The notes beneath the pieces are model-generated. The model had not been told where the DNA came from, did no database searches, and saw only the letters and a list, made by a program, of their open reading frames with translations. A program made the position numbers and the translations under genes. From a virus: DNA of 64,000 bases. The stretch lies in IMG/VR virus record IMGVR_UViG_3300046816_000434. One strand, written 5' to 3'. Of the stretch, positions 426 through 64,000 are shown in pieces (positions within the stretch are counted from its first letter, which is position 1; each line of letters starts with the position of its first letter).

Positions 426-674
426 CTAGAAGTTGTGCAGTTTGTGCTCAGGCCAGGACTCAGCGGCAGCGGCGTGAAGTTCTTCCGCCGTGGGTACGGC
501 GATGTTCAGCGTCTTCATGCGCTGGCGTAGCTTCTCAGCGTTCATCCGGTTGAGCGCACTAACCAGATTCTCATCCCAGCCTTCGGCGCGGAGATAGTAA
601 TACTTTGCGCCCTGGATGTAGTCAGAGCGGATCGACGCTGCCGATTCGGTGCTCTTCGTTGTCTGTCGTTTCAT
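426..674 (-). CDS. Hypothetical protein, 82 aa
   Basis: ATG preceded by GAGGAG Shine-Dalgarno; 3-nt gap to the next gene. Confidence 0.7.
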   Translation of the reverse strand: MKRQTTKSTESAASIRSDYIQGAKYYYLRAEGWDENLVSALNRMNAEKLRQRMKTLNIAVPTAEELHAAAAESWPEHKLHNF

Positions 675-736
675 GGTCTCCTCAGTGCCAGATTGACTGG
701 CAGACGGCGGTGCCTCCCGGCGTGGCCGTTTCGACC
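675..736 (-). ncRNA. Type II hammerhead ribozyme HH1
   Basis: Minus strand: GGUC-GAAA-CGGC..GCC-GGGA-GGC..GCCG-UC^UGCCAG-UCAAU-CUGGCA-CUGAGGA-GACC-AUG. Complete core (CUGANGA, GAAA, GUC cleavage triplet) and all three stems pair. Predicted cut between 703 and 702. Confidence 0.9.
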
Positions 737-739
737 TTG

Positions 740-949
740 TCAGGCAGCAGGCAGGTTTGCCGCCCAGTCAATCAGGCACAGCACAACCTTCAGCGCAACG
801 GCGATGAATGCCAGCCCAAAGCAAACGCCAACCGCGCCACAGATCCATTGCAGGATCAGCACCGCCAGAGGGCTAAAGCAGCATGCGACCAGCAGGAGGT
901 GGAAGGCGATAATTCCGGCCCATTCCAGGCGGTTCAGCTTATCGGGCAT
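740..949 (-). CDS. Small membrane protein, two predicted TM segments
   Basis: MPDKLNRLEWAGIIAFHLLLVACC...; hydrophobic and overlapping the upstream stop. Confidence 0.6.
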   Translation of the reverse strand: MPDKLNRLEWAGIIAFHLLLVACCFSPLAVLILQWICGAVGVCFGLAFIAVALKVVLCLIDWAANLPAA

Positions 950-1388: not shown

Positions 1389-1402
1389 GTTCAATCTCTC
1401 TA

Positions 1403-1461
1403 TGGCCTAGCTCATCAGCGTCACGCGGCCAGTCGTGACAGACGCCTTACGGCGTTTCGCT
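1403..1461 (-). ncRNA. Type II hammerhead ribozyme HH2 with pseudoknot
   Basis: Minus strand: AGC-GAAA-CGCC-GUAA-GGCG-UC^UGUCACG-ACUGGCCG-CGUGACG-CUGAUGA-GCU-A-GGCCA. Canonical CUGAUGA core; loop I UGGCC pairs with the 3' GGCCA. Predicted cut between 1441 and 1440. Confidence 0.92.
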
Positions 1462-2418
1462 TATCTGCACCAGTTGAGCCTGGATGAAAGCGCCGAACGG
1501 CTGCACGCTGTCGCCACGCTGGTAGGCTTCCTGGTAGTCGACAATCTCCTGCGGGGTGTCCGCCGTGATGCGGTCGACCTCGGCCTGCGCCAGGAGTCCG
1601 CCGTCCAGGATGAACTGGGTCATGGAGCCGGGGCGCTTCTTGCTGTCGCGGCCCCACAGTCCCTTCATCGCGGCAGTTTTGAACCGTGGCCGCGCTCGGG
1701 CCTCCAGGCGGACGATGCCGCGCAGTTGATCCGGTGCCAGTGCGGCGACTTCCTCCGGTTGCATGGCCGCGCAGAAGTAACACGAGGACTTGGGCGGAAC
1801 AGGCAGGCCAGCCAAGGCGATCTCCAGCTTGCAGCGGTCCCGGTTCCAGCCCCAGTCCTGCAGGGGATACCAGTACTCGTAATGCTCTTCCTCCACCTCG
1901 GCATTGCAGGCGTAGGTGCGAACCCGCTTCTGATCGGCGGAACTGTCGTCGTACCCGATGACCTTCAGCACCTTCTCTCCAGTCGCCCACCATTCCTTGG
2001 CTGGTGCCCACGCCTGGATGAACCGATGCTGGGGAGCGGCCTTCCATTTCTGGGAGCAGGACTTGAACTGGAAGCTAAAGCTGATCGACGGCAGCGTGCC
2101 GTTGGTCAGGCAGTTCTGCTCCAGGCTGTAGTACGGAGGCCAGTTCTTGAAGTTCTGGGGCACGTAGCGAACGACAGTGACCTCGGGCATGCCGTGGGCT
2201 ACCAGGAAGGCATTGATCGTCTCCAGGTAGGCGTAGGTTTCAGGGCGCTCCCCGCCAACGTCCGCGAACAGGATCAGATCCGGGACGATGCGGCGACGGG
2301 CAAACTCCACCAGCACTGCGGTAGAGTCAACGCCCATCCCGTAGGCGACGACCAGCGGCTGTCGCCGGGTGTAGGAACCGAACAGGTCCTCAGTGGTGAC
2401 GGTCTTCAGGGTACGCAT
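1447..2418 (-). CDS. Phosphoadenosine phosphosulfate reductase-like (PP-loop, adenine nucleotide alpha hydrolase) protein
   Basis: PP-loop variant AYGMGVDST, FADVGGERPETY, KSC, YPLQDWGW and PKSSCYFC Fe-S-type cysteines. Confidence 0.85.
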   Translation of the reverse strand: MRTLKTVTTEDLFGSYTRRQPLVVAYGMGVDSTAVLVEFARRRIVPDLILFADVGGERPETYAYLETINAFLVAHGMPEVTVVRYVPQNFKNWPPYYSLEQNCLTNGTLPSISFSFQFKSCSQKWKAAPQHRFIQAWAPAKEWWATGEKVLKVIGYDDSSADQKRVRTYACNAEVEEEHYEYWYPLQDWGWNRDRCKLEIALAGLPVPPKSSCYFCAAMQPEEVAALAPDQLRGIVRLEARARPRFKTAAMKGLWGRDSKKRPGSMTQFILDGGLLAQAEVDRITADTPQEIVDYQEAYQRGDSVQPFGAFIQAQLVQISETP

Positions 2419-2585
2419 TAGCGTGTCCTCCCGGTGAACATAAAGCTCCAGGCCCCGGCGTCAGGCCAGCGGGCGATACAGCAGCAGTGGGTCATGACGC
2501 TCTTCACCAGCACGGTGAAGGGGCCAGCCGCCTGAACGCGCTCAGCGTAGACGATGGCCTCCTGGGCAGAGTAGAAGGGGCGCAT
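2418..2585 (-). CDS. Small hypothetical protein
   Basis: ATG at 2585 overlaps the upstream TAA; stop overlaps the next start. Confidence 0.45.
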   Translation of the reverse strand: MRPFYSAQEAIVYAERVQAAGPFTVLVKSVMTHCCCIARWPDAGAWSFMFTGRTR

Positions 2586-3010
2586 TAGCGGCCCCCTTTC
2601 GACTTGGTCAGGATGAACGGCCCGATATTGCAGCGTCCGTCGCCGCAGACGCAGCATCCAGTGCTCTTGTCCGTCTGCACGGCGCCCATCGGCAGGCTGG
2701 CCTGAGAGCCGTGCAGGAAGGCGACAGGCTCGGCAGACTCATCCACGGCCCCGAACAAGCCACCCACGCTCTGCACGTCCGTGTCCTGCTTGGCAACCTC
2801 CACGTTGCGGACGACCAGCTTACGGCCCCGGCTCCACTTGGCGACTGGCTCAGTGACCGCGTCCAGGATCGAAGGCGCGGCGGGAGTGAACGGATCGACC
2901 AGTTCGCGGGTTTCCTCGACCATGTCATCCAGAATCGAGCGCTCACGGTAGACCGTGACGGCGGGTGCGTCGTTCGTAAGCTGCTTTGTTTGCTGCGGTG
3001 TGGTGTGCAT
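2585..3010 (-). CDS. Hypothetical protein, first gene of the early operon
   Basis: 141-aa ORF starting 6 nt after a -10-like hexamer; C-terminal CCVCGDGRC. Confidence 0.65.
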   Translation of the reverse strand: MHTTPQQTKQLTNDAPAVTVYRERSILDDMVEETRELVDPFTPAAPSILDAVTEPVAKWSRGRKLVVRNVEVAKQDTDVQSVGGLFGAVDESAEPVAFLHGSQASLPMGAVQTDKSTGCCVCGDGRCNIGPFILTKSKGGR

Positions 3011-39919: not shown

Positions 39920-41818
39920 ATGGGCGGCTATTACGTGCCTAACATCCAGCGGCCTGGTTTCGGCTATCAGCGCCGCAGCGAGGATGACGAAGACGAATTC
40001 GATGGCTCTGGCTTTGGTGATCCCGGCGACTGGGGCGGCAGTGCAGGCACGCCTGCGTCTGACGGGCCGGATGCATCGGGCGCGACCGGCGGCTATTCTC
40101 CGTTGGCTGCAAATTCGCCCGCGCAAGGCATGCAGAGCATGTCCGCTCCTGCTCCCGCCGTCCAGAATCCGGATTGGCTGAGCGGGATGGATTGGACGGG
40201 CTCTTCGCAACAAGACAACCCGCCGATACCGTACGCATCTCCCTCGCGCGGCGGGGCGGACACGGCGCCTACCGAAACGGAGGCGAATCTGTCCCGGCCG
40301 GCTGGACCGGAAGGCCGTTATCTTCCCGAGCCTCCCGAGCCGCAGGACGCTGAGACAACTCCCACCAGCACTGGCATACCCGGTATAGGCCAGCCGCCCA
40401 TGGGGAGGCCTTCCAAGGTTCCTCCGCCGGTCTCTTCCCACGCCGAACAGGAAAAGCTCAAACAGATGATCAAGGCGGGACCGAAGCGCAGCGTCCTGGG
40501 CACGATTCTGGCGGGAGCGGCGGGATTTGGCGCGGGCTACGTGAATGCGGCAAGCCGCACGCGGAACCCGGTTCCGGTTCCGCAACAGGCGATGCGCAAC
40601 CTGACCTGGCGTGCGCCCGGCGGCGGAGCGTGGGACACCAAGCTTGCGCGGCAGAAGGAGCTGGCGGAGCAGGAGCAAGGCGAGGAGAAGCGCGCACTGA
40701 GCGCACAGCAGATCCAGGCGCAGGCGGAGGAACGTCAGGCGCAGGCGAAGGAGATTGCGCAGCGCGGCGACTATCTGAGTCAGATCGCGAAGACGGGAGC
40801 TAAGGCGGAGGAGGACCGGCAGAAACAGCAGCAGTTGCAGCGCATCACTCAGATGGGTGGAAGAACGCCGCAGATCCGCTACTACCCGGCGGACAATCCT
40901 CCCGCCGAGGTGGCAAATTCCAGTGACTGGTATGTGAAGCCCGATCCTTACGATCCGCATTCTATGATTGCGGTGCGTCCTGATCCAGGCCAGAAGATCG
41001 ATGACGAGACGGCCGACCTTCTGGGCATTGCGCGTGGTTCTACTGTCTCTCCGTCTACTCTTAATGCGGCAACGCGAGCGAAGATATCGGCGGTGAACGC
41101 GGCTCAAGCCTCTTCCGACAGGGAACTGGAGAGGTTGCGCAGGGAAGCGGCCGACAAGAACACGGTCAGGCATCAGACCGAAATGGAAGGCATAGCCGCC
41201 GGGGGTGCAGCGGATCGGACGGAGGCGAGGGAGCAGCGGCGTACGGATGCGCAGAACAAGGCGCTGCAGGGCGCGGAAGACTCAAAAAAGAACTTACTGA
41301 TTGGGGCAGAGAGATGGGGTGACAACGAGCGCAATAAGGTGCGAACGTCGTTGGGTTACATTTCTGACGCTGAAGAGGCGCGCATCAAGAAGGCAGTGCT
41401 CGCGCAAAAGCAGGCTGCATATAACAGCTACGCAGCAGCCAGCCGGCAATATGGCGGCGCAGCGTATGATGTGAAGCTCGATGAAAACGGCGATCCGATC
41501 CCGATCACGGAAGGGTATCTGAAGGGGCAGAAGCCGACTTACCTTCCTGGCGAAACCGCACCGACACCGACGGCACCAGCCGCTACTCCCGCTCGCGCGC
41601 CCACGGGCGGCGGCAGAGGCGGACGCGGAAACGTGCCGCCTCCAGTGAACACGAGCGCGCAGACGCAGGTTCCGCCTGCTGAAAAGGCCCCTCCCACAGC
41701 GCCGCAGGGCGAAGGGGTGACCGTCCCCATTCCCAACAATCCAAGCAAAAGTATGCACTTTGCCAGCAGGGAAGCGGCCGTGAAGTTCTTTAAAGACCGT
41801 GGCTACGATCTCAAATAA
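39920..41818 (+). CDS. Internal virion/DNA ejection protein, putative
   Basis: AAGGAGG SD; Gly-rich amphipathic segment LGTILAGAAGFGAGYV followed by long coiled coils. Confidence 0.7.
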   Translation: MGGYYVPNIQRPGFGYQRRSEDDEDEFDGSGFGDPGDWGGSAGTPASDGPDASGATGGYSPLAANSPAQGMQSMSAPAPAVQNPDWLSGMDWTGSSQQDNPPIPYASPSRGGADTAPTETEANLSRPAGPEGRYLPEPPEPQDAETTPTSTGIPGIGQPPMGRPSKVPPPVSSHAEQEKLKQMIKAGPKRSVLGTILAGAAGFGAGYVNAASRTRNPVPVPQQAMRNLTWRAPGGGAWDTKLARQKELAEQEQGEEKRALSAQQIQAQAEERQAQAKEIAQRGDYLSQIAKTGAKAEEDRQKQQQLQRITQMGGRTPQIRYYPADNPPAEVANSSDWYVKPDPYDPHSMIAVRPDPGQKIDDETADLLGIARGSTVSPSTLNAATRAKISAVNAAQASSDRELERLRREAADKNTVRHQTEMEGIAAGGAADRTEAREQRRTDAQNKALQGAEDSKKNLLIGAERWGDNERNKVRTSLGYISDAEEARIKKAVLAQKQAAYNSYAAASRQYGGAAYDVKLDENGDPIPITEGYLKGQKPTYLPGETAPTPTAPAATPARAPTGGGRGGRGNVPPPVNTSAQTQVPPAEKAPPTAPQGEGVTVPIPNNPSKSMHFASREAAVKFFKDRGYDLK

Positions 41819-44800
41819 TGCCCGACGTTCTTGAACCTGAAGTAGCCGATCCTACTACCGACCCCGATACAATCGACTGGGAGCAGGAAGCCAAACAGGC
41901 TGGTGCGGCTGTTATCCCGACACCCCAACCCCCTAAGCCGCCGGTTGATGATTGGGAGGCGGAAGCGAAGAGTGCCGGGATAAGCGTCACCCCGACGCCC
42001 AAGCGTCAGGCGCAGCCTGCGCAACCCGCGCGCGCTATCGACTGGGAAGCGGAAGCCAAACAGGCGGGAGCGACCATCCAGGATAATGTTTACGCCGGTC
42101 CCCAGATTGGCTTTGAGATCCCTCCGCACCAGTTAGATCTGGGCCGCAGGATACCGGCGGGCCTGGCTCCTCAGGCTCCTGCTACGCCTGCACCCGCTGT
42201 TCCGCCGCCGGTTGCCGTTCCACAACCGACCGTCTACGGCGGGCCGCAGCTTGGTCCGATCACGCCGCCGCCTGCGCCAGCACAAATCACGCCTGTTCCG
42301 CTTGAGCCTGGCCTTCAACGCCCGGCGCCTGCTCCTCAGTTGCCAACGGGTGCCGGCGGTATTGCGCAGGCGGTCAGCAATGTGATGGGCGAGTCGCCGC
42401 GCCTGGATGTGCAGGCAGCTCGCGCCTACGGCCTGCTAACTTCGCCAGGCCAATTCATTGAGCGGCCGGCGAATGACGTGCCAACGGCGGATCACATCGT
42501 GTATGCGATTCGCCAGATGGCGGCGAACCAGGCTTCGCCCGTAGAAGTCGGCAAGATGCTGGCGTTCGGCTTGGGCGGCAAAGGAATCGGTCTCCTGCAG
42601 AAGGGACTCGCTAATTCCGGAATGCTGGCTTCGCTACCTGGCTTGAGCAAGGCGCTTGACGTTGCTTCGCGCGCCGCGATCCCTGGCTATATCGTTGGCA
42701 GCGGTAGCAAGAATGTCTATGAGCAGGCGCAGGCAGCTCAAGCAGCGAAGGAGCGCGGAGATACCGGCGCCGAGGTGGAAGCGCGGACGCAGGAAGTGGT
42801 CAGTGCGTTGATGGCGTTGGCGGGTGCGTATGGCGTCCGCCAGGCCTGGCAGGTCAAGGGCGCGTATCCGCCTTCTCCGACCGCCGCCGAGAAGGCGACA
42901 GCCGAGAAGATAGGCGGCATTGCTACTCCCAAGGTCTCATCCGAAGCCGCAGGCGCGATTGCAGAGCGGCTGCGCCAGCAGGGTGCTCCATTGGCGGCGC
43001 AGGCATGGGAGCAGCTCGACCGTAGCCGTCCGGTTGAGCTGAATATTGGGGGCAGGAAGGCCTACCTCACGGATACCTGGACCGGAGGGCGTCCGGGCGT
43101 GGGGAACATGATCCAGTATGTCTTCGATGAAGACGGCGATGTACTGACGGGCGGTTCGCCGGATGCCGTGAAGGGCTGGCTCGATCAGCAGACCAGCACA
43201 CGGCGAGGCATGCGATCCGGTACTGCTGCTGCCGGTGTTCCGGGCGTTACTTATGAGCCCGCGTTAGAACAGGGCGAGGCACTCACTGGGACCAGGCCGG
43301 CTCCTCCTGGGACTGGCGCGTCCATCCCCCCACGGGTTGGTTCTCAGGTTCCAGGAGAAGGAGTGCCGCCTGGCGAAGGCGGCGGGGCACCTTCCGGTCC
43401 TGACGTTCCCGACGTTCCCGACGTTCCTGGCACATCCGTAGTCCCTCCGTCCGTTGGCGTTCCGTCCATGGACCCGCAGTTGCGTGACCAACTGCATGAG
43501 ATGAGCGCGGAAGACATTGCGCGGTACAACAGTCCAGACATCAACACGATGTTGCGCATGCTGGGCCTTCCCCTGACCGGCAATAAGCTGGACCGTGCCA
43601 CGGCCATCAAGGAAGCAATCGCCAGGCAGCAGGCTGGTGAAGTGGCACCAGCGTCCGTAGGGGCGGAGCCGGAAGGCCCTCCCGAGCCGAAAGCGGAAGT
43701 CACTTCCGGCGGGCCGCAGGCGCCTGAGGAGGATGTCAGTGGTGGCCGCAATGCGGTGACACTCGATCCCGCCAAGATGGACGAGGAGACGTTCGATCAA
43801 TACGTGCGTCTTCGCGAGCTGCTTAAGAACGCCGGCAACCTGGGCTTTGAGAGAATCGGAGATGCGGTCAAAGCCATTCTGACGCACCAGGACTGGGCAA
43901 CCCGCTGGGACGTGGGAGGGGGACCCGATGGCGCGGAGCTAATCCGGCTGGGCAACAAGTTTGGCGGCTGGCAAGAGCAATTGCCTGCGCCTGCCCAGAA
44001 CGCGCTGCCTCCGCCGGTTGGTACAATAGGCCCCTATGGGCGACCCGTCAGATCTGAGGAACCAGAAGGAAAGGTGGGAGAAGCAGCAGCGGCTCCGGAG
44101 GAATCTCGACCGCTGGGCGGGGTTGGTGGAGGGGAAAGCTGGCGACAAACCAGCATCATCATCCCCGGAGCCGACGAAGAGCTTGGAGCCCAATACAGAC
44201 TTGCCGAGTTAAAGGACGTATTCCCCTCCCACCATCCCTTCAGCCTTCAGGCGCAGCCCGAACACCCGTGGGGCAATGAGCGCAATTACAACACGCCGGA
44301 AGGCAGGGCGCGTCTCTATAAGCAGGCGACCAGATTCAAGCACCGCCTGATGGTCACCGACAACGCGGACAACGTCAACGGTCCGTCCGTGGTCGCGCGC
44401 AATCCCGCGAATCCCAACGATCCGAGGCTCTACGTGCTGGGCGGCAACAGCCGCATCATGACCATCCACCGCGTGGCGGCGGACCACCCGGAGGCGTACC
44501 GCGCCTACGTGCAGTACCTCGCGGACCGCGCGCCGTTGTACGGCTACACGCGCGAGCAGGTGCTGGGCATGGAGAACCCGGTTCTGGTGCGCGAGCTGGA
44601 TCAGACCGAGATTCCAAAGTACCGCCAGATCATCAGCGACCTGAACAAGACCGGGACCGCCGCGCTCGATCCGTTTGAGCAGGCGATCAGCGATTCGCAG
44701 CGCGTCAGCCAGGACACGCTCGACCACATCCACTACGCCATCGAGAAGCTGGGGTCGAAGGGCACGCTCGCCAAGGCCCTTGAGGGCGCCCTGGGTCCTG

Positions 44801-47800
44801 AGATCGTGCAGAACCTGGTTAAAGACGGATTGATCACCGAAAGCGGGCGTCCTGCTTATCTGGACCCACGGTCGCAGAAGGTGACCGCAGAGGGCAAGGC
44901 GCGCATCTTGCGTCTCATGCTGGGGCGCTTCTTTGACTCTGTGCCGCAGATGTTGAGCACCAACCCGATCTACCAGGCTCGCCTGGAACGCATGGCGGCG
45001 CCACTGGTGCGCCTGGAGGGCAGGCCCGACTGGGATGTCCTGAACGCGCCGATCCGCGAGGCGCTGGAAATCCTGTACCAGTCGGAGATCCGGGACATGC
45101 CGGTCCTGGAGGATCTGAACGCACAGGAAGACATGTATGAGGGGAGCAAGTACAGCCCGGAGGGCATTGCCTGGGCGTACGTTCTCCGGAGCAATGGTGC
45201 CGACCGGCTGGGCACCGCAGCCAGGCAGTATCTGGAGATGGAGGCCCCGTCGCGTCCCGGCCAGGACGTGGACATGTTCGCGCCGCCGCCGGTAGACCAG
45301 GCGGAGGCCTTCGCCAAGGCATTCGGTGACCTGAGAACAGGCAAGGGCAAGGGGACCGTAAGCAAGGAGTATCCAAAGCTGGGCGAGCCAGTGGCGCAGC
45401 CCGGAGAGCTGCAATCGCTCAGGCGGCGCGGTCACGGAACGGGAGAGCTGGGGTTTGATCAACCCGCCCGGACCGGGGGAGCAGATAGGCAGGAGTCGTT
45501 CTTTAGCTCAGAGGATGAAGCCGCGTCCCAGGCCCTTGAGGAATCGCGCCAAAAGAAGCTTCTGGGCGAGCGCCTCACTGCGCAGTTTCACTCCGGACAG
45601 GCGGTGCGGCCGGCCGGCCTGAAGCCCGCACAACAGCGTGGCATGTTTGAGGAGGAGGGGCCGGAACAGGGAGGGCTTGACCTTTCTGAAGCGGCGCCCA
45701 CGTCTTCGTATTCGGCCCAGTTCCCTCCATCGCCAGCGCAGAAGGCACCAGAGAAGCGCGGCGCTGCATCCCAGCGCAACATGCGTATCGCGGACCTGGA
45801 ACGCCAGGCGACTCAGATGCGCCTCACGCCTGAGGAGCAGGACGAGCTGACAAACCTGCGGCGGGAGCGGGCGACGCGCATGGCTGAGCGCCGCACCCAG
45901 TTTGAACGGGGACAGGCTCCGCTGTTTGCGGAACAGATCCCGGAGGCTAAGCCAGAGGACTTCATTCGTGCTGATGAAGAAAGGGAGCGGAGCAGGCGGG
46001 AGAGCGACCAGGGCAGCGAGCAAAAGGCGCGCAACTACCGGGAAGCCATTGCCGGGGCCGTGTCGCCGGAACGGCTGGATGAGCTGGACAGAGGGTGGGA
46101 AAGCTTCAAGGGGCCGCATAAACCTGCGTATCACGCGGACTACTGGCTGCAGCACTACCGTGATGTCTTTAAGCGCAACCCGATGGACGTGTACCGTGGA
46201 GGTGAGCCGTGGCCTCTACCTAAGACTGAAGGGGAGGAGCGGGCAAAGCAGGCTGGCCTGACCGAAGAGGAGTACCTGGAGCTGAAGGCTCCGCATGAGG
46301 GCGAGGGAGAGGTACAGGCGCTGCGCCGTGTGCCGCCCGACCAGCTTCCGCCTGTCAGGCGCGGCCTGAACGACGTGCAGGAGATCCTGCATGACCAGGT
46401 GCGGAAGAAGATCAAGGCGGATGCGCCCGATGCGCTTCAGCAACACCGCCTGGTTACGGAGTCGCGCAAGGAAGTCCAGGAGCAGCTCGCTAAGCCTGTG
46501 AGTGGCATTGGCTGGTATGACGCCGATACGCCGCTCGCCAATACCGATCTGACCAAAGCCTTTCCTGAGCTGAAGACGAATCCCGAAAAGCTGGTCCTGC
46601 TCAACGCCATGTCGGCGGTGACCTCTTCCAGCCATGAGGCGGAACGGGAGTCGGAGCAGGCCGCGTACATCTACGAGCAGTACCGCAAGACGGGGCGCAT
46701 CCCGCTTTCCCGTACAAAGGGCACCAAGTGGGTGGGGCAGGGCGCGGCCGTTGGGCTCGATAAGCTGAACCGTCTGTTGCGGCATTTCGGCGGTAAGACT
46801 CCCTTTGCCGGCGAGAAGAAGCTGGCGGATTTCCTCACCACCAAGCAGACTGCAGACAGCATCCGTGCGCTGGGCCGCAAGCTGGGCTATACGGACGGGA
46901 CCATCCGCTCCTGGCTGGAGAAGCGCGACGAGATGCTGGGGGCTGCGGTCCTGGGCGAGAAGATGTCCCGCTATTTCGCGGGCATCATGGGCCTGGACAT
47001 GGACGGGTCGACCGTCGATGTCTGGATGGCGCGCGCGGGTTACCGCCAGCTTGGGCGCCTAGTGAAGGAAGGCGAGCCCAAGGGTCCGGAGGCGCCGCGT
47101 TCGCCGCGCGACCGCCAGCTCTTCATGAAGACGGATGAAACCCTGGCGAAGGAGTTTAGGCTACCTACGCGCGACATCCAGGCGGTACGCTGGTTCTACG
47201 AGAAAGAGCTGTACCGCAGCCTGGGGTTTAACACCGCCGATGGCTGGCGGTCGCACGGTACGCTAAAATACCTGGAAGACAATGGCATTGCAACAGCGTA
47301 CACCCGCAATCGACGTCGCCGAATTGATCTCAGCGCTGCAGAGAATGCAGCTCAAAGCGAAGGCGGAGGGGCGCGACCCGACACTTCGGCAACTCCTGGA
47401 CGAGGCGCACGAGCAACTGCGCAAGGACCAGGCGAAGAGGAAGTAAGCGCCCGGCGTAGACCTACCGGACCGGGCGAGGGGCAGTTCTCGCTTCCCTTCG
47501 ACCAGCCTCACGAGACGGCCATCGAGGACCTGCAGGAAGCGGCTGGCCGTCCGCACATCATCAGCATCGATCCCAATGCTATCCGCCGCCTGACAGACCC
47601 GCCGCGACCGGCTGTTGCAAGTCAGCAGGCGAGCGAGCAGTTCTTTAAGGGGGCCGACTCCTACGTCACCAAGGTGGGCGATGTTCCGGCTGTGTTCATG
47701 AACCAGCCGATGATGGACATTCTGCTGCATGCCAAAGGTACTTGGGCGGTTGACAAGAATGGCTCTCATGTTGGCGGGCTGGCGGTTCCGCCCTCCCAGT

Positions 47801-50800
47801 GGAAAGCCGTTTTACGTACGGAGCTAGCGAGCTGGGCTCGCACCGAGAACGGGACGGCCAACATTTCCGATCCCGCCATCTTAAAGCTTGCCGGTCAGAT
47901 CCGTCAGGCGCTGGGGCTTCCCAGCCTGCAGGACCAGTTACAGAGCGTGGGTGCGCGCGCGATGACGGGGCATGCCGCTTTGCGGCAGATCCAGAGCGAG
48001 TGGGACTCGCCGCGTTTCAATCGTCAGATCATTGTGGCCCAGGTGGGCGACAGCCTTGCGCCGGCCGAAATCAAATCGTTGATCGAGGAAGAATACGACC
48101 ACATCCAGCACTTTGGTTTGCCTGGCGGCATGGCCGCGCTGCCGATTCACATCACCGAAAATTCGCCAGTGGCACGCAAGGCGGTCCAGCACCTGGCGCA
48201 ACTTGGGTATCCCGACCTGCTTGCGCCCGGTGATCCGGGGCGCATGGCGAGCAACGCCATCATGACCAGCGAGGTCATCGTGCGCCTGATGCGCCCTGAG
48301 CGGTGGCAGGAATTGGGCATCTCCCGGCGCGAGGCGCGGGAGCTGGCGCTGCACTACATCACGGGGCTGGCATCGCTGGGTCAGCACGCGGATGTTATCA
48401 TTGAGCAGTTAAACCATGCCCTCCCCAATCAAACCCAAGCACACCTCCCGGCAGGAAGCGAAACCGGCCTTCGACCGTTTGAAGGAGCTGGTGAAATTGG
48501 CGCAAGAGGACCCCCAGGCGCTAGAGAGGGAGATGGACAAGATGTTTCAGACCCCGAAATCCAAGCCCTAGCGCCGGTCCGCAGGGCAGCGGAACGCGCG
48601 GCGACAGCAGCGAAGACCACCAAAGCCGGCCGCGCGCTGGGTATCGGTCCTACCGTTGAGCGCCAGGTTATCCCCTTCATCGACAACCTGGAAAAGGCTA
48701 TCGATCAGATCCTCTACACGGTCAGTCCCAGCAGCCGTGGCCCTTATGCCGAGAAGGCCGCGCTGTCCATGCGCGCGGATGCGGCGCATATGGACCGTGT
48801 AATCAAGCAGGCGAGCACTGCGCTGGAGGAGCTGCGCAAGCCCTTGGGCAAGCTCTCTCAGGCGCAGCAGCGGCGATTCATCATTCGCTCCGAATCCAAC
48901 CGCCCGCAGGTGGATGCCACCCTGCCCAACGGCGAAGTGATTCCGGCGGCGGAGATGAACCGCATCGCGGCCGAATTCAAGAAGGTCAACGACTACATCC
49001 GCGCCGAGGTGGAAGACGCGGACGGCCCGGCGACCCAGCGTATCTGGCGCGAAGTGTATTTCCCGAATTTCTGGAAGGAGACGTCGAACGTCAGGCCAGG
49101 CACTACCGGCATGCCGTCTGGTTTGGGGAAGGCGCCGTTTGCCGGCCCGCGAGGCTTTGAGAAGCGGAAGGTCTTTGATACTTTTGTCGATGGTCTCCGC
49201 GCAGGCTACACGCCGCTCTTTGATAACCCCGTCGACTTCTGGCAGGCCAAGACGCGGGAGATGGCGAAGTTCGCCATGTTCACCCGGCTGAAGGCCGACA
49301 TCGAGCCGCTCGCCAAATTCAAAGGCTTCACTGAGAAGATGCCGGATGGCTACGACAAGGTCAACGACCCCTTCGCCCGAGTCCTGCAGTACAGCAAAAC
49401 CGAAAAGGGATTCATCGCGCGCGGCGACTGGGTGTATCCGCGAGAGGCCGCAAGAATTATCAACAACTACCTGTCGCCCGACCCGAGGCAGACCATGCCG
49501 GTCTGGAAGCTGATCACCGACATCGGCAATCTGTGGCTGCGCTGGAAACTGAGCGGCTTTTATCACTTCGGCGCGACCGCGCTCAACGGCATCTATTCCC
49601 ATGCGGCACTCGCTGCGCGCATGGCTGCGGCCGGCGATATGAAGGGCGCGGCCGAGCATTTAGTGAAAGCTTCGGTCTCTCCGGTTGCGGATGCGATTCG
49701 TGGAGGCCGTCTCAAGCGCGAATTCTTAGACATCAACGGCACGCAGACCGCTGCGTTCCAGGCGCTGGAGGAAGGCGGATTCCGCGCGGGGCAGGACCCG
49801 TTTTTCCAAAGCAACATGCGCCAGCGCGTGAAGGAAATGTGGAAAGCAGGCGAGAGGATCACGCCGATTTTGGCAAGCCCCTTCGCGGCCATTGAGTGGA
49901 TCACCGTGCCCCTGATGGAGCATTACGTCCCGGCGATGAAAATGGCGGCGGCGCACGACCTGGCGCGGTTTGAGCTGGAGCAATACCAGAAGCGCAACGC
50001 GGGGATGATGCCTAACCCGCCGCGCATGCGCAAGATCATGTCCGACGCGGTCGACAGCATCGACAATCGTTTTGGGCAGTTGACCTATTCCAATATCTTC
50101 TGGAACGCCGCGCTGAAAGCCGCCCTGATGAGTGTGATCATGAGCGTGGGCTGGAACCTGGGAACCGTGCGCGAGCTGGGCGGCGGCATCAAGGATATTG
50201 TGAGTGCGGTAGCCAAGGGCGGCGGCGGCATGACCAACCGCATCGCGTATCTTGCCGCGCTGATTGCCCTGCACACGATAGGCGCCGCGATCTACCAGAA
50301 GCTGGCAACCGGGAAGAACCCTTCTTCCGCGAAGGACGTGGTCTACCCTCAGGACGGCGGCGTCGATGAACGCGGCCATCCCACGCGCGTCTCCTTCCCC
50401 GACTACATGAAGGAGCTGTGGAACTGGACTAACGATCCGGTGGGGTCCGCTGTCAACAAGACACACCCCATGCTCAGCTTCCTGCTGAAGTACATCCAGA
50501 ACCGCGACTACTGGGGCAGCAAGATTCACAACCCGGAGGATGACTGGCGCGACCAGCTCAAACAGTTTGGGAGCTACGCCCTGCGTGAGGAGCTGGCGCC
50601 GCTCTCTGTCAGCAATCTGCTGAAGATGAAACAGCGCCAAGGCGAAGACTGGGGCAAGATGCTCACCGAGCAGCCCGGCAAGTCGGTTATGTCGCAGGTG
50701 GGCTTCTCTCCGACTCCCGCCTGGATCGGGCTCACCGATGCCGAGAAGCTGCTCGCGGGATACCAGCGCGAGCGTCAGCCAGTCGGTGGCCGTGACGTGG

Positions 50801-51213
50801 AAGAGGCGCAGCGGACAACAGCGCGTGCCGCGATTACACGCGCGATCCGCCTGGGGCAGGACTCGCAGCCGGCTGTCGAGAACGCGCTGCGTCAGGGACT
50901 GATCACCGGCAAGGACCTGGCGAGACTGCATAAGGCGGCGGCGGTCAGCCCTCTGCAGGCCGGGCTGAATCACGACATGCTGAACCCTGGCGAGGTTCTG
51001 CGCATCTGGGAAGCGGCGAACCCGGATGAGCGCAGGCAGATCCAGGGCCTGGTGAAGCTGCGCCTGGCGCGCATGGCACACAAGCCCAACGTGCACTGGG
51101 AAGACTGGTCGCGTGAGGCGGCGGAGAAGTATTTCGGCATCCAGGCACGGCCGCGTCTCGCGATCCCTCCTGGCTATGGTGTCCTGCCCCCGGCAGTCGG
51201 CGCCAGTCAGTAA
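41818..51213 (+). CDS. Large polyvalent virion protein, 3131 aa
   Basis: N-terminal DWExEAKxAG repeats, SAP-like motif, ddrB-like ParB domain, helical glycosylase-like region and LPD38-like C-terminus. Confidence 0.85.
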   Translation: MPDVLEPEVADPTTDPDTIDWEQEAKQAGAAVIPTPQPPKPPVDDWEAEAKSAGISVTPTPKRQAQPAQPARAIDWEAEAKQAGATIQDNVYAGPQIGFEIPPHQLDLGRRIPAGLAPQAPATPAPAVPPPVAVPQPTVYGGPQLGPITPPPAPAQITPVPLEPGLQRPAPAPQLPTGAGGIAQAVSNVMGESPRLDVQAARAYGLLTSPGQFIERPANDVPTADHIVYAIRQMAANQASPVEVGKMLAFGLGGKGIGLLQKGLANSGMLASLPGLSKALDVASRAAIPGYIVGSGSKNVYEQAQAAQAAKERGDTGAEVEARTQEVVSALMALAGAYGVRQAWQVKGAYPPSPTAAEKATAEKIGGIATPKVSSEAAGAIAERLRQQGAPLAAQAWEQLDRSRPVELNIGGRKAYLTDTWTGGRPGVGNMIQYVFDEDGDVLTGGSPDAVKGWLDQQTSTRRGMRSGTAAAGVPGVTYEPALEQGEALTGTRPAPPGTGASIPPRVGSQVPGEGVPPGEGGGAPSGPDVPDVPDVPGTSVVPPSVGVPSMDPQLRDQLHEMSAEDIARYNSPDINTMLRMLGLPLTGNKLDRATAIKEAIARQQAGEVAPASVGAEPEGPPEPKAEVTSGGPQAPEEDVSGGRNAVTLDPAKMDEETFDQYVRLRELLKNAGNLGFERIGDAVKAILTHQDWATRWDVGGGPDGAELIRLGNKFGGWQEQLPAPAQNALPPPVGTIGPYGRPVRSEEPEGKVGEAAAAPEESRPLGGVGGGESWRQTSIIIPGADEELGAQYRLAELKDVFPSHHPFSLQAQPEHPWGNERNYNTPEGRARLYKQATRFKHRLMVTDNADNVNGPSVVARNPANPNDPRLYVLGGNSRIMTIHRVAADHPEAYRAYVQYLADRAPLYGYTREQVLGMENPVLVRELDQTEIPKYRQIISDLNKTGTAALDPFEQAISDSQRVSQDTLDHIHYAIEKLGSKGTLAKALEGALGPEIVQNLVKDGLITESGRPAYLDPRSQKVTAEGKARILRLMLGRFFDSVPQMLSTNPIYQARLERMAAPLVRLEGRPDWDVLNAPIREALEILYQSEIRDMPVLEDLNAQEDMYEGSKYSPEGIAWAYVLRSNGADRLGTAARQYLEMEAPSRPGQDVDMFAPPPVDQAEAFAKAFGDLRTGKGKGTVSKEYPKLGEPVAQPGELQSLRRRGHGTGELGFDQPARTGGADRQESFFSSEDEAASQALEESRQKKLLGERLTAQFHSGQAVRPAGLKPAQQRGMFEEEGPEQGGLDLSEAAPTSSYSAQFPPSPAQKAPEKRGAASQRNMRIADLERQATQMRLTPEEQDELTNLRRERATRMAERRTQFERGQAPLFAEQIPEAKPEDFIRADEERERSRRESDQGSEQKARNYREAIAGAVSPERLDELDRGWESFKGPHKPAYHADYWLQHYRDVFKRNPMDVYRGGEPWPLPKTEGEERAKQAGLTEEEYLELKAPHEGEGEVQALRRVPPDQLPPVRRGLNDVQEILHDQVRKKIKADAPDALQQHRLVTESRKEVQEQLAKPVSGIGWYDADTPLANTDLTKAFPELKTNPEKLVLLNAMSAVTSSSHEAERESEQAAYIYEQYRKTGRIPLSRTKGTKWVGQGAAVGLDKLNRLLRHFGGKTPFAGEKKLADFLTTKQTADSIRALGRKLGYTDGTIRSWLEKRDEMLGAAVLGEKMSRYFAGIMGLDMDGSTVDVWMARAGYRQLGRLVKEGEPKGPEAPRSPRDRQLFMKTDETLAKEFRLPTRDIQAVRWFYEKELYRSLGFNTADGWRSHGTLKYLEDNGIATAYTRNRRRRIDLSAAENAAQSEGGGARPDTSATPGRGARATAQGPGEEEVSARRRPTGPGEGQFSLPFDQPHETAIEDLQEAAGRPHIISIDPNAIRRLTDPPRPAVASQQASEQFFKGADSYVTKVGDVPAVFMNQPMMDILLHAKGTWAVDKNGSHVGGLAVPPSQWKAVLRTELASWARTENGTANISDPAILKLAGQIRQALGLPSLQDQLQSVGARAMTGHAALRQIQSEWDSPRFNRQIIVAQVGDSLAPAEIKSLIEEEYDHIQHFGLPGGMAALPIHITENSPVARKAVQHLAQLGYPDLLAPGDPGRMASNAIMTSEVIVRLMRPERWQELGISRREARELALHYITGLASLGQHADVIIEQLNHALPNQTQAHLPAGSETGLRPFEGAGEIGARGPPGAREGDGQDVSDPEIQALAPVRRAAERAATAAKTTKAGRALGIGPTVERQVIPFIDNLEKAIDQILYTVSPSSRGPYAEKAALSMRADAAHMDRVIKQASTALEELRKPLGKLSQAQQRRFIIRSESNRPQVDATLPNGEVIPAAEMNRIAAEFKKVNDYIRAEVEDADGPATQRIWREVYFPNFWKETSNVRPGTTGMPSGLGKAPFAGPRGFEKRKVFDTFVDGLRAGYTPLFDNPVDFWQAKTREMAKFAMFTRLKADIEPLAKFKGFTEKMPDGYDKVNDPFARVLQYSKTEKGFIARGDWVYPREAARIINNYLSPDPRQTMPVWKLITDIGNLWLRWKLSGFYHFGATALNGIYSHAALAARMAAAGDMKGAAEHLVKASVSPVADAIRGGRLKREFLDINGTQTAAFQALEEGGFRAGQDPFFQSNMRQRVKEMWKAGERITPILASPFAAIEWITVPLMEHYVPAMKMAAAHDLARFELEQYQKRNAGMMPNPPRMRKIMSDAVDSIDNRFGQLTYSNIFWNAALKAALMSVIMSVGWNLGTVRELGGGIKDIVSAVAKGGGGMTNRIAYLAALIALHTIGAAIYQKLATGKNPSSAKDVVYPQDGGVDERGHPTRVSFPDYMKELWNWTNDPVGSAVNKTHPMLSFLLKYIQNRDYWGSKIHNPEDDWRDQLKQFGSYALREELAPLSVSNLLKMKQRQGEDWGKMLTEQPGKSVMSQVGFSPTPAWIGLTDAEKLLAGYQRERQPVGGRDVEEAQRTTARAAITRAIRLGQDSQPAVENALRQGLITGKDLARLHKAAAVSPLQAGLNHDMLNPGEVLRIWEAANPDERRQIQGLVKLRLARMAHKPNVHWEDWSREAAEKYFGIQARPRLAIPPGYGVLPPAVGASQ

Positions 51214-63536: not shown

Positions 63537-63755
63537 TTACTTGGTTTCGGTGATGGTGAAGGTGTGCGGGTCGGTGTCGCCATCGGCCTGCTCCCAGACG
63601 TGAAGCTGGATGCTCTCGGTTGCTCTGTTGTATTCAAACACCCCGGCCTGCTGTCCATTCAGGAGCAGCAGAAAGCCGGGATAGTCCGGGTCGTAATGCT
63701 GCATCACGGTCAGTTTGCCGATGGGCGTAGTCACGTTCAGTTCGCTGTTGCTCAT
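63537..63755 (-). CDS. Hypothetical protein
   Basis: ATG preceded by GAGGAG inside hammerhead HH3. Confidence 0.7.
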   Translation of the reverse strand: MSNSELNVTTPIGKLTVMQHYDPDYPGFLLLLNGQQAGVFEYNRATESIQLHVWEQADGDTDPHTFTITETK

Positions 63756-63807
63756 GGTCTCCTCAGTGCCGGAATTCACCGGACAGACGCCTCGCGGCGT
63801 TTCGACC
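63756..63807 (-). ncRNA. Type II hammerhead ribozyme HH3
   Basis: Minus strand: GGUC-GAAA-CGCC-GCGA-GGCG-UC^UG(U)CCGG-UGAAUU-CCGGCA-CUGAGGA-GACC-AUG. Predicted cut between 63786 and 63785. Confidence 0.88.
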
Positions 63808-63810
63808 TAC

Positions 63811-64000
63811 CTAAACGAGATCCACTCCGATAGTTGCCAGCACCTCCGCTGCCTGCTCGTAGATCCCGTAGGATTCGCCGTCGTTGCAGCCGTCCTCGCA
63901 GATGCCGTCGAAGTCCTCCATGCGTCCGTGCGGGTCGTTGGTGATCACGTTGCGACCATCACAGAAAGGGCAGCGCGCCCCGCACAGAATGGCGCTGGCT
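63811..64000 (-). CDS. Cys-rich protein, 5' end outside window
   Basis: Manual translation ...LCGARCPFCDGRNVITNDPHGRMEDFDGICEDGCNDGESYGIYEQAAEVLATIGVDLV*. Confidence 0.6.
   Translation of the reverse strand, partial: ASAILCGARCPFCDGRNVITNDPHGRMEDFDGICEDGCNDGESYGIYEQAAEVLATIGVDLV

Follow-up and report, generated by a model that had tools for sequence, protein, structure and literature searches.

HH3, a short element on the minus strand of the viral DNA stretch IMGVR_UViG_3300046816_000434 (64,000 nt analysed; hereafter the window), is probably a compact type II hammerhead ribozyme of the same kind as HH1, an element found near the other end of the window. It lies in a cluster with a third hammerhead, HH2; its catalytic core appears to build the Shine-Dalgarno (SD) sequence of the following gene; and the identity of its flanks with those of HH1 is best attributed to functional constraint. 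The layout that the initial annotation pointed out, in which a stop codon, a ribozyme, a ribosome-binding site (RBS) and a start codon fill the whole intergenic gap, is real and has been reused, with about 30 unique examples.

Hammerhead Motifs and Flanking Genes

The elements and the genes around them are as follows, with coordinates in the window except where a contig is named.

63753..63810, minus strand: HH3, predicted type II hammerhead with an embedded SD
63808-63800, minus strand: 5′ side of HH3, with the conserved A (63808), the stem II 5′ strand GGUC (63807-63804) and GAAA (63803-63800)
63800-63787, minus strand: HH3 stem III, a hairpin with a GCGA loop
63786, minus strand: C17 of HH3; predicted cut between 63786 and 63785
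63785-63767, minus strand: HH3 stem I, with one C.C mismatch or a bulged U
63766-63753, minus strand: 3′ side of HH3, with the core CUGAGGA (63766-63760), the stem II 3′ strand GACC (63759-63756) and AUG (63755-63753)
63811..64000, minus strand: 3′ part of g90 (90 aa), the gene upstream of HH3; its start lies in the 949-nt gap described below, its stop TAG at 63813-63811
63537..63755, minus strand: P0001 (72 aa), the gene downstream of HH3; its AUG directly abuts HH3 stem II
672..739, minus strand: HH1, same subclass as HH3; upstream stop TGA at 742-740
736-672, minus strand: parts of HH1, with GGUC (736-733), core (685-679), GACC (678-675) and AUG (674-672)
703, minus strand: C17 of HH1; predicted cut between 703 and 702
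HH1 stem I, minus strand: perfect 6 bp with loop UCAAU
426..674, minus strand: P0003 (82 aa), the gene downstream of HH1
740..949, minus strand: gene for a small membrane protein (69 aa), upstream of HH1
1398..1464, minus strand: HH2, predicted type II hammerhead of the classical pseudoknot type; core CUGAUGA, stem II of 2-3 bp, C17 at 1441
1447-2418: gene for a PAPS-reductase-like PP-loop protein (PHROG 424), in the hammerhead-punctuated block
L062 11997-12485: gene for a DUF6884 protein, in the hammerhead-punctuated block

By direct reading, the core is complete in HH1, HH2 and HH3 (C3-U4-G5-A6-N7-G8-A9, G12-A13-A14, the A15.1-U16.1 pair and H17), and the cleavage triplet is GUC in each of them. 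The topology of HH1 and HH3 is permuted, stems I and III being capped by loops and stem II being open. HH2 carries a pseudoknot of 5 bp between loop I and the 3′ tail and a separate leader ahead of an AUG at 1388, and the stop codon of the PAPS-reductase-like gene (1449-1447) falls within its stem III loop.

The initial annotation had described HH1 and HH3 as sharing their ends while differing in their stems, and this description was borne out. The common 18-nt block at the 3′ side has exactly two copies in the window, both minus-strand (672-689 and 63753-63770), and an 18-mer with up to three mismatches is matched 0.12 times in shuffled sequence; the common 11-nt block at the 5′ side occurs exactly at 727-737 and 63798-63808 on the minus strand. 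Alignment confirmed that the two elements have different sequences in stems I and III, and each element begins 3 nt after an in-frame stop codon, the TGA and the TAG listed above. A search of IMG/VR for the exact 18-mer gave no match, and blastn against GenBank phages returned trivial matches only. As to the genes on either side of HH3, g90 has one homolog, in the contig L126 (73% identity), which is not followed by a hammerhead, and the database search with P0001 matched only its own protein.

Circular Genome and Clustering of the Hammerheads

The genome is a circle of 64,949 bp, or else a permuted genome, as judged from the contig L064, which bridges the window ends. This JGI contig of 2,251 nt matches window 344-1 and window 64000-63043 at 100%, and between its two window-matching ends it holds 949 nt that are missing from the window; joining the ends through these 949 nt therefore gives a genome of 64,949 bp. 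A 65,042-nt contig on record with the same proteins fits a circle of this size, and a further contig found by exact-protein look-up, L062, corresponds to window 12418-1 and continues for 819 nt beyond.

HH3 had been placed 63 kb from HH1 in the initial annotation; this apparent separation is an artefact, because the window cuts the circular genome. The L064 bridge gives a real distance of 1.8 kb: on the circle, 1,812 nt separate the end of HH1 from the start of HH3, which lies downstream of it on the same strand. HH2, HH1 and HH3 thus lie within about 2.6 kb, all on the minus strand and each at a gene junction; this is the coding strand of a single block of small phage genes, which runs on without a break across the window ends. 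The minus-strand order is g141, g55, the PAPS-reductase-like gene, HH2, P0005, the 69-aa membrane protein, HH1 and P0003, followed by DUF6884, g156, g93, g90, HH3, P0001 and DUF6573.

Searches for a further hammerhead in the 949-nt gap and for terminator-like sites on the coding strand between HH2, HH1 and HH3 found none. A weak promoter-like site is present in the 949-nt gap before g156 (L064 395-423), that is, between HH1 and HH3, and could put these two hammerheads on separate transcripts. The longer element at L064 395-460 consists of this promoter-like TTGCAA-17-TATACT, then a GC-rich hairpin and an AAAGGA-type ribosome site, and it is conserved, with intergenic counterparts in two related contigs (L124 5255-5325 and L125 2345-2405).

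Evidence for Type II Hammerheads

In E-value mode the Rfam model Hammerhead_II (RF02276) scores HH1 at 20.6 bits and HH3 at 16.1 bits, both under the gathering cut-off of 37, and an Rfam scan of the whole window at the gathering level listed nothing. Relatives of HH2 reach 28.6 and 44.4 bits with the same model, the latter being the HH2-type ribozyme of the contig L124.

The assignment of HH1 and HH3 was therefore examined by comparison with sequences found independently of this model. Searching IMG/VR with a pattern of the core only yielded 61 loci, and 15 sequences were aligned with HH1 and HH3 (n = 17). In this alignment 99.6% of cells pair and compensatory changes occur in 10 of the 15 pairs, three of the four stem II pairs being fixed by the search pattern and so uninformative on covariation; shifted-register controls of the same alignment pair at 23-47% only. 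A search with the model R2, which was built from unrelated viral contigs with the window sequences left out, was run over the whole window and detected HH1 with 59.1 bits (E 1e-15), HH3 with 49.5 bits (E 1e-12) and HH2 with 18.8 bits (E 0.002). The minimum-free-energy fold is the three-way hammerhead junction for HH1 and likewise for HH3. Judged from sequence comparison, HH3 is a type II hammerhead and a genuine second copy of the compact subclass of HH1, and it is predicted to cleave. Pairing between loop I and the 3′ tail was sought in HH1 and HH3, and at most 3 bp are possible, with no covariation; the two elements have no complementary tail because the start codon directly follows stem II.

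Several other candidates were rejected. At 2545-2607 (minus strand), a fourth hammerhead was suggested by what looks like a hammerhead 5′ half, GUCGAAA plus a hairpin, at 10.7-11.4 bits (E 0.4-0.6), and the CUGANGA half is missing there. This site is at the g141/g55 junction, and the loop of its stem-III-like hairpin holds a TAATG stop/start overlap; in the related genome G006, the gene homologous to that at this junction is directly followed by an HH2-type ribozyme. A pattern match at 43688-43730 (plus strand) had no model match and was taken as chance; it is inside a single ORF of 3131 aa, which occupies window 41818-51213 (plus strand) in the structural-gene block. Also taken as chance was a Twister-P5 match at 63667-63721 (16.2 bits, E 0.58), which is within the P0001 coding region.

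Probable Ribosome-Binding Site within the Hammerhead Core

The R2 model recognises 115 hammerheads in the 61 IMG/VR loci, about 25 of them in three loci of one 64.8-kb contig, and these split into two designs. Design A has an open stem II of 4 bp (GGUC/GACC) with a conserved A on each side, a 5-nt loop I of the form U-N-A-N-K and no pseudoknot; the start codon comes 4-11 nt after core A9 and 0-7 nt past stem II, and in most cases the upstream stop codon is at -1 to +4 nt before stem II. Design B, to which HH2 belongs, is the published type II form: the tail behind stem II base-pairs with loop I, and a separate site of the GGAG type and a start codon come 19-30 nt further on. Design A is at its most compact in HH1 and HH3, where the spacing is 0 nt and the A of AUG replaces the conserved 3′ A; this zero-spacer GACC-AUG form is a minority of the subclass (4 of 35).

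In HH1 and HH3, N7 is G, and the core and stem II together read GAGGAG. The first search pattern fixed N7 as G, and a second scan used the same scaffold with A, C or U at N7; matches with real stems were counted in both. Among the matches listed in these two pattern scans, one of which listed at least 120 loci, a start codon occurs within 8 nt of GACC in 19 of 25 hammerheads with N7 = G and in 6 of 128 with U, C or A at this position (Fisher p = 3e-14), and the hammerheads of the latter group have a separate GGAG or AGGA site further on. Because a G at N7 goes with a close start codon, the hammerhead core very likely doubles as the SD site of the next gene. AGGAG and AUG are 3 nt apart in HH1 and HH3, a short spacing for an SD. 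In the predicted 3′ cleavage products the SD region is unpaired for HH1 and weakly paired for HH3; before cleavage, GACC is base-paired in the fold and the core holds G8-A9.

The blocks common to HH1 and HH3 correspond to functionally fixed positions: the core, the scaffold stem II and the SD formed from N7-G8-A9-G10.1. Identical flanks combined with different stems are thus accounted for, because function fixes the flanks while the stems may vary as long as they pair; and as the flanks are the subclass consensus, no recent copying is needed to explain them.

Examples with the embedded SD were found in about 27 other viral contigs and in six Acidobacteriota genome assemblies. Within species-representative prokaryote genomes, genuine design A hammerheads are confined to Acidobacteriota (Terriglobales, Acidobacteriaceae; L097, L107, L109, L111, L119 and L122), which suggests that these phages infect members of this phylum; the same may hold for the window phage, whose GC content is about 61%. 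The other pattern matches in prokaryote genomes, 20 of 26 (e.g., in Brevibacterium), lack proper stems and were set aside as coincidences in coding sequence. The aforementioned 64.8-kb contig, IMGVR_UViG_3300033551_000003, has about 25 model matches in three, possibly overlapping, loci (L034, L041 and L060); it contains many near-identical pseudoknot-type hammerheads with the same leader, at a density far above that of published triple clusters.

Relatives of the Phage and the Question of Recombination

Four related genomes or contigs are informative on the three junctions:

G006: TerL 88% identical (aa), syntenic; HH2 homolog with one A inserted behind A6; HH1 and HH3 absent
L124: 75-97% aa identity; same junction occupied by an HH1 ortholog whose stem II has one wobble change; no HH3
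L125: 53-82% aa identity; design B hammerhead at the HH1 junction, with stem I and inner stem III as in HH1
L126: g90 homolog only; ordinary 22-nt spacer after this gene, and a design B hammerhead one gene on

G006 lacks the PAPS-reductase module through an indel that stops at the 5′ boundary of HH2, and where the window phage has the genes surrounding HH1 and HH3, it has either nothing or other genes. Its HH2 homolog, at L096 11893-11967, has the extra A after core A6 (CUGAAUGA); insertions after A6 are reported to give low activity (PMC3088659). In L124 an HH2-type ribozyme stands between two different genes. The hammerhead of L125 at the HH1 junction has a pseudoknot tail, a separate SD and 19 extra nt before the same start codon, so that the orthologous junction bears the embedded-SD form in L124 and the pseudoknot form in L125. 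HH3, g90 and P0001 are unique to the window phage apart from the g90 homolog of L126, and each relative has something different in their slot. With the exception of G006, TerL relatives gave no matches, and a metagenome scan with P0005 found one weak fragment only. Relatives of the PAPS-reductase-like protein (19 loci at 41-51% identity, with one hammerhead match; five whole records, with none) are too distant to inform on the hammerheads.

Besides functional constraint, short-patch gene conversion could have given HH3 its present form, HH3 having kept HH2-type stems and taken embedded-SD ends from HH1, or the reverse; such an exchange would account for flanks that are identical around stems that are not, but we regard it as unlikely. 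HH3 and the window's HH2 share one and the same stem III helix and differ only in its loop; the irregular stem I of HH3 agrees with that of the HH2-type ribozymes in L124 and G006, and the ends of HH3 agree with those of HH1; the hammerhead of L125 at the HH1 site is the converse mix, with HH1-like stems and an HH2-like 3′ end; and the zero-spacer GACC-AUG common to HH1 and HH3 is, as noted above, a minority form. However, the two strands of stem II are at opposite ends of the ribozyme, and a single patch cannot convert both; the unrelated L001, L038 and L055 also have a short, GC-rich stem III capped by a GNRA loop, so that this feature may be convergent; and the same data would be explained if the leader was deleted and a few bases were substituted in place. 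The mixture of stems and ends in HH3 fits conversion and change in place equally well.

The initial annotation had taken the near-identical flanks as a sign that a reusable stop-ribozyme-RBS unit was spread by recombination between early-gene junctions, and that it might help to shuffle early genes; in such a scheme the conserved ends of the unit would serve as short homology. We consider such a cassette quite improbable, since the flanks turned out to be the subclass consensus and HH3 is nearer to unrelated contigs than to HH1. Several observations would favour it: the region is strongly mosaic, in that the gene 5′ of the HH2-type ribozyme differs in all three carriers (the window, G006 and L124) and the gene 3′ of it differs in L124; the indel edge in G006 coincides with HH2 as described above; the contigs L042 and L044 have 96% identity starting 2 nt ahead of a hammerhead and are unrelated on its upstream side; HH3 with its two neighbouring genes occupies a slot that varies among relatives; and one IMG/VR phage has the many near-identical copies of hammerhead plus leader mentioned above. 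Against these observations, HH1 and HH3 are 74% identical, HH3 ranking 8th for HH1 and HH1 ranking 23rd for HH3 among 117 sequences, and unrelated contigs reach 80-82% identity to HH3, above HH1. Because the two are not nearest neighbours, the sequences give no sign of recent copying between HH1 and HH3 within the genome. The identical runs are just 11 and 18 nt long and coincide with functionally fixed positions, and copies within one genome in other phages have different stems, which leaves less homology for recombination.

The positions of homology breaks give no clear sign of a cassette either. Internal end points of homology among related hammerhead-bearing IMG/VR loci fall within 20 nt of a hammerhead in 5 of 228 cases, compared with 1.4% under a null of random positions rather than gene junctions (p = 0.21). 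In comparison with the nearest long relative, HH1 and HH3 are inside variable segments and not at their edges, and all junctions of the region vary, whether or not they carry a hammerhead. The initial annotation had proposed that the genes flanking the cassette would vary between relatives, and they do, differing in G006, L124, L125 and L126; its idea would have failed if the cassette were absent from relatives or the flanking gene order invariant, and here the outcome is mixed, as none of the relatives found has the HH3 cassette and the gene order is not invariant. On balance the data point only weakly to recombination.

That the motifs are merely structured intergenic elements, such as mRNA-stabilising or RBS-masking hairpins that look like hammerheads by retention, is highly improbable: the missing pseudoknot and sub-cut-off Rfam scores of HH1 and HH3, the stem I defect of HH3 and the low-activity insertion type of the HH2 homolog in G006 (PMC3088659) would agree with it, but all catalytic core residues are intact in HH1, HH3 and dozens of members of the subclass from unrelated phages, and the conserved single-stranded GAAA and CUGA would have no role in a simple hairpin.

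Proposed Mechanism

Returning to HH3 as a constrained member of the embedded-SD subclass, we can outline how it would act, using established hammerhead chemistry and bacterial mRNA decay as guides. The ribozyme would fold in a polycistronic RNA and cut after C17, so that the upstream mRNA would end in the stem III hairpin with a 2′,3′-cyclic phosphate and the downstream mRNA would start with a 5′-OH on the stem I hairpin. The two products would be joined by the 4-bp stem II only and would part for this reason, giving the ribosome access to the SD and the start codon. As GACC is paired and G8-A9 are held in the core while the RNA is uncut, downstream translation may depend on cleavage. The sequences themselves show the identity of the motif, its covariation, its position at gene junctions, the adjacency on the circle and the link between N7 and the start codon; we infer cleavage in vivo, use of the SD, and a change in translation or mRNA stability that depends on cleavage.

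A broader reading can be offered tentatively, and with some doubt: the embedded-SD hammerheads, namely HH1, HH3 and about 30 relatives, may be natural cleavage-gated starters of translation, in which the SD is locked until self-cleavage and strand release, and this form may have interconverted with the pseudoknot form at the same junction in this lineage.

Relation to Known Systems and Significance

The core, the GUC site, the permuted topology and the intergenic location in phages or prophages are all as in published type II hammerheads (RF02276; PMC3088659), and HH2 matches the published consensus down to its loop I-to-tail pseudoknot. Such a pseudoknot is present in most, though not all, published examples and is needed for fast cleavage in some (PMC3088659). 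HH1 and HH3 depart from this form: they have no pseudoknot, a fixed stem II of 4 bp between conserved A residues, a loop I of 5 nt and an invariant G at N7, their start codon directly follows stem II, and their Rfam scores stay under the cut-off. In the 2011 type II paper neither Shine-Dalgarno nor ribosome binding occurs as a term (PMC3088659).

Clusters of hammerheads flanking variable prophage genes, and their interpretation as processing sites of long phage transcripts, have already been known since 2011 (PMC3088659), with triple arrangements in Agrobacterium, Azorhizobium and Clostridium scindens (Perreault et al., 2011, Fig. 3; PMC3088659). The present cluster is like these in its three same-strand hammerheads at gene junctions within about 2.6 kb and in the inconstancy of the flanked genes, and unlike them in that two of the three hammerheads belong to the embedded-SD subclass. 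The embedded-SD scaffold is therefore a variant within the known clustered type II hammerheads.

Synthetic hammerhead devices offer a functional parallel, as the logic proposed here would likewise have cleavage release or standardise the ribosome-binding region of the downstream cistron. RiboJ, for example, is a ribozyme insulator placed ahead of the RBS. In synthetic bacterial aptazymes and thermozymes, cleavage liberates a masked SD (reviewed in PMC5367253). These devices are engineered ribozymes of type I/III in which an extended stem I hides the SD; HH1 and HH3, in contrast, are natural type II hammerheads, whose SD would come from core N7-A9 and the first bases of stem II and whose function we infer. 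Our literature search found no paper describing a cleavage-released ribosome site in natural hammerheads.

HH1 and HH3 are thus neighbours in a known type of cluster, their flank identity probably reflecting function and giving no evidence of a mobile cassette. The biological role of bacterial and phage hammerheads has been described as unresolved (PMC6765202), and a subclass whose core would serve as the ribosome site gives a direct handle on it, as one mutation series could separate cleavage from translation. The association between N7 and the start codon predicts which natural hammerheads use the embedded-SD layout. If the cleavage-gated reading is true, the expression of each downstream phage gene would be tied to RNA processing.
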